Positions 2,178-5,500 of a stretch of DNA of 32,000 nt are shown piece by piece; position 1 is the first letter of the stretch, and every line of letters starts with the position of its first letter. The notes under the pieces were generated by a model. It was not told the origin of the DNA. It did not search any database and saw only the letters and a program-made list of their open reading frames with translations. Both the position numbers and the translations under genes were made by a program. The stretch comes from Candidatus Methylomirabilis limnetica (GTDB taxonomy: Bacteria > Methylomirabilota > Methylomirabilia > Methylomirabilales > Methylomirabilaceae). The DNA is taken from the NCBI RefSeq assembly GCF_003044035.1, contig NZ_NVQC01000026.1, positions 39,764 through 71,763 of the forward strand, written 5' to 3'.

Positions 2178-2200
2178 GGGAGTTTCTCCTCAGGTTGCGG

Positions 2201-2396
2201 ATTCAGAATTCAGAATTCAGAATTCAGAATCCAGAATCCTACTACTGACTCCTGCCTCCTGCCTCCTGACTACTGCCTCCTGACTCCTGCCTCCTGACTC
2301 CTGCCTCCTGCCTCCTGACTACTGCCTCCTGCCTCCTGCCTCCTGACTACTGCCTCCTGACTCCTGCCTCCTGACTCCTGCCTCCTGCCTCCTGAA
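2201..2396. repeat. Heptanucleotide tandem array, 28 units in perfect phase
   Basis: Read directly. Plus strand is 4x ATTCAGA, ATCCAGA, ATCCTAC, then 22 units of TCCTGCC/TCCTGAC/TACTGCC, ending in ATTTT. It fills the whole gap between the four-helix-bundle gene and the CheY-like gene. Confidence 0.95.
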
Positions 2397-2404
2397 TTTT
2401 GAAT

Positions 2405-2770
2405 TCAGGAGTCAGAATTCCGGATGGTGCGCGAATAGGCTTCAAGCAGTTTGCTGACTTCTTCAAGCAACGGTATCAATTTGGAAACATCGCCGTAATC
2501 AAGGTCCATGGTGAGAATCAAATAGTATCGGGATTCTTCGAGGGAACCTTGTGCGATGTTGTAAAAGCGGAGTTTGTCTTCTGTTCCGCGTTTCTTGAAT
2601 CCTTCCGCAATGTTTGCCGCAACGGAGACGGCCGCGCGTCGAAATTGAGACGACAGACCATAGGCCTCAGTTCGCGGGAATGTCCAGGACAAACGATAGG
2701 CCGCAAGTACAAACTGGTGGGCCTTTTGCCACACCACCAAGTCCTCAAAGCGCGTCGCCGGCGACCTCAT
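2405..2770 (-). CDS. Four-helix-bundle protein (23S rRNA intervening-sequence protein / Avd-like family)
   Basis: 121-aa ORF. The blocks FEDLVVWQKAHQF, SQFRRAAVSVAANIAEGF and FYNIAQGSLEESRYYL are the hallmark blocks of this family. GAGGAG Shine-Dalgarno upstream of ATG 2770. The gene is visibly more AT-rich than its neighbours. Confidence 0.85.
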   Translation of the reverse strand: MRSPATRFEDLVVWQKAHQFVLAAYRLSWTFPRTEAYGLSSQFRRAAVSVAANIAEGFKKRGTEDKLRFYNIAQGSLEESRYYLILTMDLDYGDVSKLIPLLEEVSKLLEAYSRTIRNSDS

Positions 2771-2789
2771 GCTGACTCCTCAATTTTGA

Positions 2790-2915
2790 ATCCAGAATTC
2801 AGAATTCAGAATTCAGCCTCCTGACTCCTGACTCCTGCCTCCTGACTCCTGACTCCTGACTCCTGCCTCCTGACTCCTGACTCCTGACTACTGCCTCCTG
2901 CCTCCTGCCTCCTGA
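2790..2915. repeat. Heptanucleotide tandem array, 18 units, same architecture as 2201-2396
   Basis: Plus strand is ATCCAGA, 2x ATTCAGA, ATTCAGC, then 14 units of CTCCTGA/CTCCTGC/CTACTGC, ending in ATTTT. It overlaps the last ~9 codons and the stop of the histidine-kinase ORF. Confidence 0.95.
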
Positions 2916-5500
2916 ATTTTCTCCTCAGGAAGCGTGAACCAGAACAGCGCGCCGCCATCGGGCGCGGACTCGATGCCGATGTCCCCGCCATGGCGCTCGA
3001 CGATGCGCTTGCAGATCGCGAGGCCGATGCCGGTCCCCGGATACTCGCGCCGCGTGTGCAATCGTTTGAAAATCACGAAAAGCTGCGCGCGGTACTCGGG
3101 CGCGATACCGATGCCGTTGTCCGTGACCGAGAAGCGCCACCACCCGGCCTCGCGCGCCGCTGCCACGCGCACCCGCGGCGCCCGGTCCTTGCAGAACTTG
3201 AGCGCGTTGCCGATCAGGTTCTGGAACAACTGCGCGAGTTGCGTGCGGTCCGCCATCACCCTGGGCAGCGGCTGCGCATCTATTTCGGCGCCGGTTTCGG
3301 CGATCCGGGTGGCGAGCAGATCGAGCGCCCCCTTGAGCGCAGCCGCGCTATCCACGGGGTCCAGCGTCGCGCCCCGGGTGCTGACGCGCGAATAGGCCAG
3401 AATGCCCTGGATCAGGGCCTGCATGCGCAGCGCCCCGTCCACCGCGAAGGCCATGAATTCGCGCGTGTCGGCATCGAGCTTGCCGGCGAGGCGCTTGTCC
3501 AGAAGTTGAACGTAGCCGACCACCATGCGCAGCGGCTCCTGCAGGTCGTGCGAGGCGACGTAGGCGAACTGCTCCAGGTCGGCGTTGGAGCGCGCCAGGT
3601 CGCGGGCTGTGATAGCGAGCGCTCTTCTGCGCGCGGCGACCTCGGCGGCCAGCGCGCGCTGCTGGCGCGAGATCAGCGCCACCACTGCAATGCCGCCAAG
3701 GAGCAGGACGGCGACCAGGCCGGTCGTCAGCCACAGCACTTCCTGCCCCGGCGCCAACACCTCCGCGATATCCGTTTTGGCAACCAGCAGCCAGGGCGAG
3801 TCCGGCACCTTGAGAACGCTGGCGAGCACCGGCACCCCGCGGTAGTCCGCGCCCGCGACGATGCCTTCGCGCCCCAGCACAGCCATCACCGAGGGCGTTT
3901 CGGTGTTTGACGCGGGAATGCGCAGCGACAGCGCGGTGTTGTCGCGGAACCTCAGTTCATTCAGGAACAGCACGTCGTCGCCGTCGCGGCGTACCAGCAG
4001 GGTTTCCGAGCTGCGATCGGGGACCGGCCAACGCCTGATGTACGGGTAGAGATACGTCGCCGGATCCATTTGCAGCAGCAGGGTTCCCAGCGCCCGGCGG
4101 CTGGCCGATGCCTCGACAATCGGCACCAGCAGCGTCAGGTAGATCCGCTGGTCATGCTCGTTGCGGTAGAAATCCTGCAACCCCACCTCGCCCGAGCGCA
4201 GCAGTTCGGCCGCGCGCCGCGCTACCGTGGCGCTGATGGGCACGCTGGAATCCGGCGCGGACATGCGCACGGCGCCTTGCGCGTCCAGCAGCACGACGCG
4301 GTCGTAATGCGGGTTCGCCGCGAATTTGTCCAGCCACGCGCGCAATCCAGCCCGGGCTTGCGCGTCGCCCGGATGATCGAGGGCGCGCTGCACGAGCGCC
4401 GCGAAGTCGGCGTTCCGGCTAAAAATGGAAGCATCGGCCAGGCGCTCCTTGCGATACGCCACCAGTTCGCTGCGTTTGAGTTCTGCTATGGCGGTCAACT
4501 TCTGCTCGGCGTCCCTGCGAACATCCTGATCGTGGCGCTGGAAATACAGATACCCGGCGGCGATGAGTCCTGCGGCGACGAACATCATCACCAGCACCAC
4601 CGAACGCGAAGCGCGCTGGCTTGCCGCGTCGCCCTCGCCGGCGGCCCCGCTTCGCAATGCGGTGAGCAAATACAGCCCCGCGCCGAGCGCCGCGAAAGCC
4701 AGACTGGTCGTGAGAGCGGGCGGAATGAATTTCCCGCCATAGAGCACGGGCGTCCCGAAGAGATAGCTGAGCAGGAATACGGTGCTGGCCAAAATGACAA
4801 GGCAGGCCAGCACAAAACCCGTCGTCGCCTTCCACGGCCGATCGGGCGACGAGCCGAGTGAGGCGAGCAGCGACCCGCCCGCCAGCACGAAGCACAGCGC
4901 CGTCAGCGGCGACATATGCCCGACCGGCGCGCCGTTCAAGGTTTGCGCGATGGCGAAGCCGAGGCGCTCTGCCGGCAGCGCCATGCCGAGCAGAGACAGG
5001 ACCAGCAACAGCAGGGCGACCAGCGCGCCGGCCGAGCCAATGGCCATGCCGATACGATACGCGCCGCGGCCAAGTGGCGTGCCGGCGCAGAAGAACACCG
5101 CGGCGCCAAAAAGCAGGAACAGCAGCGCGGTGCTCGGCGCCATCGGAATCCAGCCCGGCCCCAGGCTGGTGAGAAGGGGAAACTCCAGTATCCAGCCAAG
5201 CAGGGCGATGAATCCGAAACCGGCCGCAGTCGTTGCGCATGCCCGGACGAGCCCGTTCGTCGCGCGTTTCTTGTTTTCTTCGCTCGTATTTACGTACGGG
5301 TTGCGAGTGGGCGGAACGAGCTCATCCACCAGCTTCATCGCGAGGCCGCGACCGACGCGGCGGACGTCAGGCTTGCTTGCTTGCTTGCGCAAGATTTTTT
5401 CCATATTGCGTACGAACACTTTACGGGTTCTCGTCCACTCTTTGCGTCGGACTTCGCTGCGCGCCTTACAGGGGAGCACCTTGTGGCATCTCCTCCGCAT
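2888..5500 (-). CDS. Membrane sensor histidine kinase (multi-pass N-terminal region, extracytoplasmic sensor domain, HisKA + HATPase_c)
   Basis: 870-aa ORF. It has a run of hydrophobic helices in the first ~300 aa and a further TM helix (LWLTTGLVAVLLLGGIAVVALI). Kinase boxes are present: H-box FAYVASHDLQEPLR, N-box QNLIGNALKF, G1 VTDNGIGI, G2 YPGTGIGLAICK. The start is uncertain; internal ATGs at 5404 and 5338 are alternatives. The last residues (IQEAGGRRQ) are encoded by the heptamer array. Confidence 0.9.
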   Translation of the reverse strand: MRRRCHKVLPCKARSEVRRKEWTRTRKVFVRNMEKILRKQASKPDVRRVGRGLAMKLVDELVPPTRNPYVNTSEENKKRATNGLVRACATTAAGFGFIALLGWILEFPLLTSLGPGWIPMAPSTALLFLLFGAAVFFCAGTPLGRGAYRIGMAIGSAGALVALLLLVLSLLGMALPAERLGFAIAQTLNGAPVGHMSPLTALCFVLAGGSLLASLGSSPDRPWKATTGFVLACLVILASTVFLLSYLFGTPVLYGGKFIPPALTTSLAFAALGAGLYLLTALRSGAAGEGDAASQRASRSVVLVMMFVAAGLIAAGYLYFQRHDQDVRRDAEQKLTAIAELKRSELVAYRKERLADASIFSRNADFAALVQRALDHPGDAQARAGLRAWLDKFAANPHYDRVVLLDAQGAVRMSAPDSSVPISATVARRAAELLRSGEVGLQDFYRNEHDQRIYLTLLVPIVEASASRRALGTLLLQMDPATYLYPYIRRWPVPDRSSETLLVRRDGDDVLFLNELRFRDNTALSLRIPASNTETPSVMAVLGREGIVAGADYRGVPVLASVLKVPDSPWLLVAKTDIAEVLAPGQEVLWLTTGLVAVLLLGGIAVVALISRQQRALAAEVAARRRALAITARDLARSNADLEQFAYVASHDLQEPLRMVVGYVQLLDKRLAGKLDADTREFMAFAVDGALRMQALIQGILAYSRVSTRGATLDPVDSAAALKGALDLLATRIAETGAEIDAQPLPRVMADRTQLAQLFQNLIGNALKFCKDRAPRVRVAAAREAGWWRFSVTDNGIGIAPEYRAQLFVIFKRLHTRREYPGTGIGLAICKRIVERHGGDIGIESAPDGGALFWFTLPEEKIQEAGGRRQ

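Follow-up and report, generated by a model that had tools for sequence, protein, structure and literature searches.

Between a sensor histidine kinase gene and a response regulator gene of Candidatus Methylomirabilis limnetica lies a 735-bp segment that we interpret, with a probability of roughly 80%, as a horizontally spreading, non-autonomous mobile element that inserted at this junction. Its S23p/four-helix-bundle gene (PF05635) sits within arms of 7-nt units, a combination of gene and heptamers already known from 23S rRNA intervening sequences. Public data contain thousands of genes of the PF05635/TIGR02436 family, which is very abundant but poorly understood in both function and mode of spread. 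To our knowledge, where rRNA intervening sequences come from and how they move has been an open question since about 1990, and we know of no source for the intergenic heptamer arrays found in several phyla.

A cassette between two copies of a 12-bp target

A search of the window (the whole 32-kb stretch of DNA analyzed) for the 12-mer TTTCTCCTCAGG, with up to one mismatch allowed, found just two sites, 2183-2194 and 2918-2929, in agreement with the first-pass annotation of this DNA. The copies are 735 bp (105 x 7) apart and so are mutually in 7-nt phase, and the likeness between the two sites reaches 15 of 17 positions. The sensor histidine kinase (2888..5500, minus strand), with HisKA, HATPase_c, and weak dCache matches, now runs into a heptamer array and ends in ...FWFTLPEEKIQEAGGRRQ*, its stop codon (2888-2890) lying within the array. 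The single-domain response regulator (1728..2177, minus strand), which starts at 2177, formerly shared with the kinase an ATGA overlap that coupled their translation. Target copy 1 (2918..2929, minus strand), which reads CCTGAGGAGAAA in operon sense, holds the last native kinase codons (P-E-E-K), and target copy 2 (2183..2194, minus strand) bears the regulator's Shine-Dalgarno sequence (GAGGAG), 8 nt ahead of the ATG. Insertion left the kinase its last native codons in one target copy and the regulator its ribosome-binding site in the other, and it was probably tolerated because both signals were kept.

Excising the insert together with one 12-mer yields CTT CCT GAG GAG AAA CTC CCA TGA, just as the first-pass annotation had claimed. 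Apart from the phase of the arrays (see below), its description of the cassette was equally accurate: profile scores and GC content identify a 121-aa four-helix-bundle gene, AT-richer than its flanks, between two heptamer arrays.

Empty sites and insertion history

The same operon junction was found without the cassette in nine Comamonadaceae-type orthologous operons (66-88% kinase identity), all with an ATGA stop/start overlap, and in further contigs, L176-L181. None of the orthologues had arrays but no gene. Although the best hits of the kinase are to Rhodoferax-like Comamonadaceae, exact protein matches assign the focal DNA to Ca. Methylomirabilis limnetica. The 12-mer CCTGAGGAGAAA is single-copy in the empty-site operons L007, L009, and L179, and L180 carries the target as CCCGAGGAGAAA. 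In metagenome contigs L180 and L181, where the regulator is 97% identical, the junction reads ...CTTCCCGAGGAGAAACTCCCATGAGTTCCAATGAAGTC and the kinase ends in TLPEEKLP* with an ATGA overlap, exactly the pre-insertion end that had been predicted by deleting the cassette.

The filled site is present in diverged strains whose flanks are 93-97% identical and whose four-helix-bundle gene is 99.2% identical. These strains share the insertion site yet differ in array lengths, module number, and kinase tail. An assembly artifact was rejected, as the cassette recurs in independent assemblies and is present in eight. Together, the empty sites and the 12-bp duplication support the earlier proposal that the cassette arrived at this junction with a target-duplication-like repeat. 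One insertion took place, in the Ca. Methylomirabilis limnetica lineage and precisely at the ATGA overlap region, and it duplicated a 12-bp target.

Heptamer arrays and their variation

Tandem Repeats Finder resolved the regulator-side array (2201-2394) into 5.3 copies of ATTCAGA and 21.4 of CTGCCTC and the kinase-side array (2788-2915) into 4.1 copies of GAATTCA and 14 of CTCCTGA. The totals, ~28 and ~18 units, match the 28 and 18 given in the first-pass annotation. The arrays had also been described as in phase. This holds within each array, where the 7-nt register is perfect, but the two are offset by 2 nt from each other (phase 2 vs. 4) because the gene between them, at 366 nt, is not divisible by 7.

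Read in operon sense, the module upstream of the gene (2771..2917, minus strand) comprises AAAATTCAGGAG, 13 units of the KCAGGAG type (GCAGTAG in one case), a GC link, three TGAATTC units plus TGGATTC, and a leader, AAAATTGAGGAGTCAGC, that is the source of the four-helix-bundle gene's Shine-Dalgarno sequence. Both the kinase stop and the non-native tail before it, IQEAGGRRQ, are encoded in this module. The module downstream of the gene (2195..2404, minus strand) comprises ATTCAAAATTCAGGAG, 20 more KCAGGAG-type units (some KCAGTAG), TAGGAT, TCTGGAT and four TCTGAAT units, and then CCGCAA. In this copy, the two modules run in the same direction rather than being inverted to each other.

Array size varied among assemblies and strains. 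For the regulator-side array, the window has 227 nt, L002-L005 have 150 nt, and L001 has an N gap. The upstream module differs in unit count between strains L071 and L072. A shorter downstream module is seen in L002-L005 and L072, whereas L071/L073, in which target copy 2 reads TCTGAGGAGAAA, have it as a tandem duplicate. Depending on the strain, the kinase tail is IQEAGGRRQ*, IQ*, or IQESGGRSQESGGSSRILDSGF*; the repeat-encoded tail noted in the first-pass annotation is therefore real but not conserved. These size differences reflect slippage, which accounts for the size of the arrays and not for their origin. Strain comparison shows that, after insertion, the arrays grew, shrank, and were duplicated as whole modules, leaving a variable junk tail on the kinase.

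The four-helix-bundle gene

The protein encoded within the cassette (2405..2770, minus strand; 121 aa) belongs to PF05635/TIGR02436, with domain-wide matches above the curated cut-offs: 114.2 bits against PF05635 (cut-off 33.8; E 4e-33) and 107.9 bits against TIGR02436 (cut-off 24; E 3e-31), the latter across residues 13-116 of 121. An identical NCBI protein, WP_107563323.1 from Ca. Methylomirabilis limnetica, is named four helix bundle protein, and two PDB entries match by sequence: 2gsc (E 4e-16), a four-helix bundle that forms a pentameric ring, and 2rld. The final codons and stop of the gene (AATTCTGACTCCTGA) are themselves heptamer units. With a GC content of 51.6% vs. ~65-70% in the flanking two-component genes, the gene is, judged by its composition, foreign to the operon.

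Homologues number ~8,000, the best 120 of which are 78-98% identical, and named sources among them include Kiritimatiellia, Elusimicrobia, and Syntrophaceae. Compared with relatives, the gene has a median dN/dS of ~0.15 (range 0.06-0.30), and by this measure the protein is under purifying selection. Its dS is just 0.33-0.5 to elements in unrelated contexts. Searches of PHROGs and PADLOC with the 121-aa protein returned no match. Avd, from diversity-generating retroelements, is a remote homologue in the same four-helix-bundle fold family (NF033474, E 1.5e-4), but the score of 22 bits falls far short of the cut-off of 80. The neighboring ORFs scanned against Pfam were housekeeping or two-component genes with no reverse transcriptase among them, and no template or variable repeats were seen near the gene. 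With this NF033474 score and no reverse transcriptase among the scanned neighbors, the protein does not qualify as an Avd.

Arrays travel with the gene

Period-7 arrays adjoin the gene in 62 of 70 relatives from unrelated contexts, usually in inverted orientation, compared to 8 of 183 control positions. Likewise, at least five reverse-complement 8-mers were common to both flanks at 44/70 loci vs. 1/183 controls. Many of these elements also have short target duplications, and flanking direct repeats of at least 7 nt, scored with automatic boundaries, were modestly enriched (21/72 vs. 10% in the null). The array survey and the target duplications support the first-pass suggestion that four-helix-bundle genes travel as heptamer-flanked cassettes. 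An element's own arms shared 5.4 reverse-complement 9-mers vs. 2.4 for cross-paired arms, a modest gap. An identical element is present in many contexts. The heptamers TCAGGAG and TCAGAAT, with their complements, are found beside related genes of unrelated genomes; one of these is Nostoc punctiforme, in which pNPUN02 has matching arms around a four-helix-bundle gene. In 48 of 50 callable flanks, the gene is oriented in sense with the host operon. Our literature searches found no described link of heptamer arrays to this gene family outside rRNA.

Transposon ends and the IS66/ISBst12 link

The cassette's nearest relatives measure 431-435 bp, end in 16-bp terminal inverted repeats (GTAACTACTCAGGTAG), and lie between 8-bp target duplications. 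Inverted repeats of the ISBst12 type, GT(A/G)ACT(A/G)CTCAG..., were found in L063, L075, L076, L078, L083, and L092 and in the window at 8836-8997 and 20702-20830; inverted repeats with a perfect 8-bp duplication were found in L063, L076, L078, L087, and L092 and at 8836-8997 in the window. Both window elements are gene-less members of the same family. In the first (8828..9005), one inverted repeat (GTAACTACTCAGGTAG) occupies 8836-8851 and its partner (...GTAGTTAT) extends to 8997. This element also has AGGCTGA arrays in inverted orientation and the 8-bp target duplication CACACTGC at 8828-8835 and 8998-9005; its 20-aa mini-ORF had no NCBIfam match. The second (20694..20838), in opposite orientation, has inverted repeats at 20702-20717 and 20815-20830 and flanks, GATGACTG and GATGGATG, that are alike at 6/8 positions.

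A 1,833-bp element (L159) with identical 16-bp ends and the 8-bp duplication TCTTTTTG encodes a 535-aa DDE_Tnp_IS66 transposase (PF03050, E 9e-36), and the same inverted repeat terminates an IS66 transposase in L075, with a four-helix-bundle element 8 bp away. ISDge4, an ISBst12-group element for which transposition has been observed, has the ends GTGACTACTCAGCA/GTAACTGCTCAGCA and an 8-bp repeat (PMC12898284). Because an IS66-family transposase element has identical ends and an 8-bp duplication, the gene family, as read from these sequences, acts like a set of non-autonomous ISBst12-type elements whose passenger is similar to a 23S rRNA intervening sequence (an S23p gene with heptamers). We infer that the closest relatives were moved in trans by an ISBst12-group transposase, since they and the two gene-less window elements bear ISBst12-group ends and 8-bp duplications. 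The four-helix-bundle elements differ from ISBst12/IS66 elements in consisting of a passenger gene and heptamer arms, with no transposase.

The focal copy is atypical compared to the family norm of inverted arms and 8-bp duplications. Its duplication is 12 bp, its arrays are direct, and a search allowing up to 3 mismatches found no ISBst12 terminal inverted repeat in it; on the kinase side, the outer repeat was either lost or never present. Just the native target resembles the repeat, at 13/16 positions when reconstituted. Most of the more distant relatives likewise have no recognizable outer inverted repeats.

Alternative explanations

These atypical ends could also be the outcome of a standard ISBst12-type insertion with an 8-bp duplication (e.g., TCCCATGA, which holds ATGA), after which the kinase-side end and its inverted repeat were deleted and the regulator-side repeat was converted or mutated to the similar native sequence, restoring the ribosome-binding site. 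We consider this unlikely, though it has real points in its favor. An 8-bp duplication is the family norm and often holds the downstream ATG (GAAATATG, AGAAATG, TATGAAA), TGAATCCGCAACCTGAGGAGAAAC on the regulator side can be aligned with TGAATCCTGTCTACCTGAGTAGTTAC, the usual right end, and the reconstituted native site GTTTCTCCTCAGGAAG agrees with the inverted-repeat variant GTAACTGCTCAGGAAG at those 13 of 16 positions, with 0.14 such matches expected per 32 kb. Two other elements (L077 and L140) also retain only one inverted repeat. Still, three events are needed instead of one, the window and L072 each have two identical 12-mers, and no intermediate allele with inverted repeats at the junction was seen among the strains examined, regulator homologues of 92-97% identity having only empty junctions.

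It is far less probable that the cassette was ancestral to the operon family and that its 12-bp repeats later recombined to excise it precisely, leaving the empty sites. Direct repeats could mediate such a deletion, and two distant lineages, L019 and L074, also have four-helix-bundle genes where a kinase gene adjoins a regulator gene. However, identity comparison indicates that these two are independent insertions, because the neighbors in L074 are 45-46% identical while the gene is 83% identical, and the gene in L019 is just 38% identical. The absence of the cassette from the nine orthologues and contigs L176-L181, the foreign GC content of the gene, and its low dS to elements in unrelated contexts all argue against an ancestral cassette as well. 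Least credible is the rival raised in the first-pass annotation itself, in which nothing was inserted and slippage at the native CCTGAGGAG ribosome-binding region built the arrays in situ, with the 12-mer likeness as a by-product. Although the native CTGAGGAG is similar to the unit TCAGGAG and the arrays clearly change by slippage, a conserved 366-bp gene cannot arise in this way. In-place slippage as the origin is refuted by the empty sites, at which no incipient arrays were seen, and by the same heptamers beside related genes in unrelated genomes.

Parallels with rRNA intervening sequences and intergenic heptamers

Intervening sequences encoding S23p are found in the 23S rRNA of Coxiella burnetii, Leptospira, and Xanthomonas, and the S23p ORF of the Coxiella element, which is excised by RNase III, is preceded by strain-variable tandem heptamers (PMC4990558). 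The inserted mobile element resembles these in its PF05635 protein, its foreign composition, and its suspected horizontal spread. An ORF between complementary arms is a further parallel in its relatives; the focal arrays are direct and have a predicted pairing through G.U only. The focal copy also fits in having tandem heptamers directly upstream of the start codon that vary in number among strains. By contrast, it lies between kinase and regulator genes instead of in 23S helix 25 or 45, its arrays have ~18 and ~28 units rather than 2-4 and are direct, and its target duplication is visible. In addition, the Coxiella ORF is reported to be decaying and untranslated (PMC4990558), whereas the focal ORF is under purifying selection.

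The intergenic heptamers of cyanobacteria, Beggiatoaceae, and Xanthomonas (STRR, TAACTGA, and GGGAATC repeats) are similar in forming period-7 tandem arrays of variable copy number at gene junctions, and they have a patchy phylogenetic distribution, suspected horizontal transfer, and no known vehicle (PMC4679880, PMC4692102). These papers tie the repeats to neither a gene nor a transposon, while in the cassette and in N. punctiforme pNPUN02 the arrays form the arms on either side of a four-helix-bundle gene.

At the RNA level, a typical element (L063) folds into a ~40-bp terminal stem (z -4.3), and the focal region has a fold z of -3.6 (20 shuffles) in which the upstream KCAGGAG array and the downstream UCUGAAU array are predicted to pair via G.U only. 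Mismatches between arms across 69 elements were of the G.U type in 78 cases and of the A.C type in 95; since the G.U type is not in excess, nothing in the sequences points to arm complementarity being maintained in the sense RNA. No promoter or terminator signals were found in the arrays, and the single promoter-like match inside the gene is no more than shuffles give. An Rfam scan of the entire window returned no family, rRNA included. Given no promoter of its own and a near-constant sense orientation, the gene would be expressed by read-through. The arms could pair in the transcript and, purely on the model of rRNA intervening sequences, RNase III may cut them there, which would uncouple the two cistrons.

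Implications

This locus provides a clean before-and-after pair, an empty and a filled site, for such an element within a protein-coding operon. For the host, the effect was to break the translational coupling of a kinase-regulator pair and to add a hypervariable tail to the kinase. More broadly, the survey links the four-helix-bundle family to a specific and experimentally tractable transposase group, IS66/ISBst12. We can only tentatively suggest that S23p gene-plus-heptamer units form one very large passenger class, including 23S intervening sequences and many of the intergenic heptamer arrays of cyanobacteria and other phyla, that is moved by ISBst12/IS66 transposases and kept sense-oriented at operon junctions for an RNA-level role of the conserved protein and its arms, which might be to process or insulate polycistronic transcripts or to act on the heptamers themselves. 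If this were true, intervening sequences would gain a vehicle, and heptamer repeats would gain an origin.

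Organization of the cassette and its operon

The cassette separates two minus-strand genes, a sensor histidine kinase with HisKA and HATPase_c domains (2888-5500) and a single-domain response regulator (1728-2177), and its 121-aa four-helix-bundle ORF (2405-2770) lies on the same strand. The 12-mer TTTCTCCTCAGG, which the first-pass annotation had reported twice, was confirmed at 2183-2194 and 2918-2929 as its sole sites, and likeness around the two copies reaches 15 of 17 positions. In the operon sense, the kinase-side 12-mer (CCTGAGGAGAAA) is followed by AAAATTCAGGAG, 13 KCAGGAG-type units, three TGAATTC units and one TGGATTC, and then by the leader AAAATTGAGGAGTCAGC and the ATG of the four-helix-bundle gene, whose terminal ...AATTCTGACTCCTGA also consists of heptamer units. 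Beyond the gene come ATTCAAAATTCAGGAG, 20 more KCAGGAG-type units, TAGGAT, one TCTGGAT, four TCTGAAT units, and CCGCAA, after which CCTGAGGAGAAA recurs, followed by CTCCC and the regulator ATG. The 7-nt register is perfect inside each array, but the two arrays, previously described as in phase, are 2 nt out of step with each other. The proposed repeat-encoded kinase tail is borne out, as the kinase frame enters the array and ends IQEAGGRRQ*. An Rfam search of the window returned no family matches, and a promoter and terminator search of the focal arrays gave no signal; the sole promoter-like match falls within the four-helix-bundle gene and is not above the shuffled-sequence level.

The ORF clearly belongs to TIGR02436/PF05635 (S23p, the “23S rRNA intervening sequence protein” family), and among solved structures the Xanthomonas pentamer 2gsc comes nearest. 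Both the regulator and the four-helix-bundle protein have identical counterparts in Candidatus Methylomirabilis limnetica, PTL35311.1 and PTL35312.1. Values of dN/dS against the focal gene were 0.06-0.30 (median 0.15), indicating that the protein is under selection. Its gene has a GC content of 51.6% vs. 65-70% in the flanking genes, and the two-component genes (window 1-5500), at 64-71%, stand above the ~52-62% of most of the window. Among species-representative genomes, the nearest relatives of the two-component genes were found at ~86% nucleotide identity in Comamonadaceae/Rhodoferax metagenome-assembled genomes. The contig itself is from Ca. Methylomirabilis limnetica (NC10). This identity and the GC excess suggest either that the operon was transferred horizontally in recent times or that the Comamonadaceae/Rhodoferax assemblies suffer from a binning problem. 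Six contigs with regulators 92-97% identical (L176-L181) carried near-identical regulators and kinase C-termini on differing sensor modules, with a 592-aa dCache-HAMP kinase and a 687-aa CHASE3 kinase compared to the 870-aa kinase in the window. The kinase-regulator junction appears to have been shuffled between sensors as one unit.

Empty and filled junctions

The cassette had been interpreted as an insertion at this junction, and empty sites were found in nine orthologous operons (L007-L011, L014, L018, L020, and L026), where the kinase stop and regulator start overlap as ATGA (...CTGCCTGAGGAGAAACCCCCATGA in L007; ...CTTCCTGAGGAGAAAAGCCCATGA in L009). Contigs with regulators 92-97% identical were likewise empty. 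One of them, L179, has the exact 12-mer in a single copy, and the predicted ancestral kinase ending, TLPEEKLP*, was seen exactly in L180 and L181, which read ...TTCACGCTTCCCGAGGAGAAACTCCCATGAGTTCCAATGAAGTC.

The filled site was found again in independent assemblies, with a shorter array in L002-L005 and an N gap in L001 that may reflect assembly collapse. It was also present in three diverged strains (L071-L073), in which the flanks are 93-97% identical and the four-helix-bundle gene 99.2%. The insertion site is identical in these strains, while the arrays vary in unit count and unit sequence, the downstream module is doubled in tandem in L071, the second 12-mer reads TCTGAGGAGAAA in L071 and L073, and the kinase tails vary (IQ*, IQESGGRSQESGGSSRILDSGF*). 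This common site with differing arrays, modules, and tails shows that a single insertion was followed by fast slippage and module duplication. Overall, the original observation holds, and its reading as an insertion is supported.

Heptamer arms travel with the gene

We found about 8,000 homologues of the four-helix-bundle protein; the best 120 of these are 78-98% identical, with named sources from several phyla, and most lie on short contigs. Identical elements are present in many contexts. In a survey of 80 metagenome loci with relatives 64-86% identical, NCAGRAK-type units (TCAGAAT, TCAGGAG, CCAGAAG) reach the ATG in nearly all loci, and reverse-complement units start within the gene's last codons, with unit counts ranging from 2 to >20. 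The suggestion that such genes generally carry flanking arrays was upheld: a period-7 array lay within 100 nt in 62 of 70 loci vs. 8 of 183 controls, and at least five reverse-complement 8-mers were common to both flanks at 44 of the 70 gene loci vs. 1 of 183 control positions. Family units sit between one gene's stop and the next gene's start, in the sense orientation of both neighbors for 48 of 50 callable flanks. Several insertions are conserved at one and the same junction in diverged genomes, namely between asd and truA, ahead of a thiolase, and ahead of a HAD hydrolase. L089, L095, L128, and L146 also carry extra modules downstream of the gene, in which an inverted array comes after a direct one.

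Two further independent insertions occupy the kinase-to-regulator junction in distant members of this operon family, L019 (9040-9690) and L074 (2310-2790). The L074 neighbors are 45-46% identical and the four-helix-bundle gene 83%, while the L019 gene is 38% identical and has inverted GGTTCA/TGAACC arrays as arms. These repeated insertions could reflect target preference or chance. The L074 kinase also runs into heptamers, with the tail ...ERSQNPESRIQKLEDGKQEPEK.

Link to ISBst12/IS66 transposition

At 79-86% identity, the nearest relatives form units of 431-435 bp that end in GTAACTACTCAGGTAG and CTACCTGAGTAGTTAC or near variants (GTAACTNCTCAGG ends). They are bordered by 8-bp duplications (AACCATTA in L063, GAAATATG in L076, GATATATT in L078, AAGTTACT in L092, and GGGGAAGT in L087), and the downstream gene's ATG often lies within the duplication. 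The outer repeats are unrecognizable in more distant, older copies. A pattern scan recovered L159, an 1833-bp element with identical 16-bp ends and an 8-bp duplication (TCTTTTTG) that codes for a 535-aa IS66-family DDE transposase (PF03050, E 9e-36). In L075, this inverted repeat marks the end of an IS66 transposase gene, and a four-helix-bundle element lies 8 bp away. Moreover, ISDge4 of the ISBst12 group, with GTGACTACTCAGCA/GTAACTGCTCAGCA at its ends and an 8-bp repeat, has been seen to transpose (PMC12898284). Given these ends and 8-bp repeats, we read the units bearing the inverted repeats as putative non-autonomous ISBst12-type elements plus a passenger; their shared ends suggest that a transposase would mobilize them in trans. 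A literature search of an incomplete library found no description of the ISBst12/IS66 link or of non-rRNA cassettes, leaving novelty unproven.

In L075 (43-2450), the IS66-type transposase is frameshifted into two ORFs, and an ORF ahead of it has a match to the DruA domain of Druantia (PF14236, E 5e-36). One short contig, L136, holds two four-helix-bundle elements in tandem (1-420, then about 300-420 downstream). As in this tandem and in the pair spaced by 8 bp in L075, elements may insert beside each other's ends.

The window also holds two gene-less elements (8828-9005 and 20694-20838) with ISBst12-type inverted repeats and AGGCTGA arrays in inverted orientation. The first is flanked by a perfect 8-bp duplication (CACACTGC, around 8836-8997) and contains a 20-codon mini-ORF (MRDHTKLRKGLEWLDSCLAR), and its spacer is reverse-complementary to the second over GATTCGTGCCTTGCGAGATAA. 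Both may be internally deleted four-helix-bundle elements. Four more short-repeat array pairs, each with its own unit and no gene inside, lie at successive gene junctions: 10149-10290 (AGGGTTT/CCCTATA-like), 12500-12535 (AGGGTAG), 13934-14030 (GCGTCATT(G)/ACGCTATAG), and 15614-15679 (GGTTTAGC/CCTCTAC). Genes in the cluster code for a CDP-alcohol phosphatidyltransferase, an oxidoreductase, an aminotransferase, a nucleotidyltransferase, a HAD hydrolase, and two TldD/PmbA proteins. Decayed elements and solo modules left after gene loss are candidate origins for these pairs.

Integration of the focal copy

Unlike its ISBst12-type relatives, the focal copy lacks the kinase-side outer inverted repeat, and its duplication measures 12 bp instead of 8 bp; its arrays are also direct, whereas the family's usual arms are inverted. 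Once reconstituted, the native site GTTTCTCCTCAGGAAG agrees with an inverted-repeat variant in 13 of 16 positions, and matches this good are expected just 0.14 times per 32 kb. The regulator-side end looks like a chimera between native sequence and the right end of the element, and the kinase-side junction and module start have AAA in common. A one-step 12-bp duplication fits this structure, as does microhomology capture at a site mimicking the inverted repeat. The third route that fits is a canonical 8-bp insertion with later deletion and conversion; an intermediate allele was not found among the contigs with regulators 92-97% identical.

Relation to rRNA intervening sequences

In Coxiella, an element in 23S rRNA helix 45 bears an S23p ORF with two or three GACAGAT heptamers ahead of it, their count varying among strains, and is excised by RNase III (PMC4990558). 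A typical family element is predicted to fold with a ~40-bp terminal stem enclosing the ORF, and in the focal region the upstream KCAGGAG array is predicted to pair with the far-downstream UCUGAAU array via G.U pairs. Across 69 elements, G.U-type arm mismatches did not exceed A.C-type mismatches (78 vs. 95), so these counts do not demonstrate selection on an RNA stem. By analogy with Coxiella, RNase III might process family elements. The focal feature is an operon-resident variant of elements of the S23p intervening-sequence type. Its family is one that we link, at the level of shared ends, to ISBst12/IS66 transposition. The same gene-plus-arms arrangement occurs in a finished genome, on plasmid pNPUN02 of Nostoc punctiforme PCC 73102 (L174, 1160-1585), where TCAGGAG/TCAGAAG units reach the ATG, CTCCTGA-type units follow the stop, and the two neighbors are co-oriented. 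This locus ties these elements to heptamer repeats long known from cyanobacteria.
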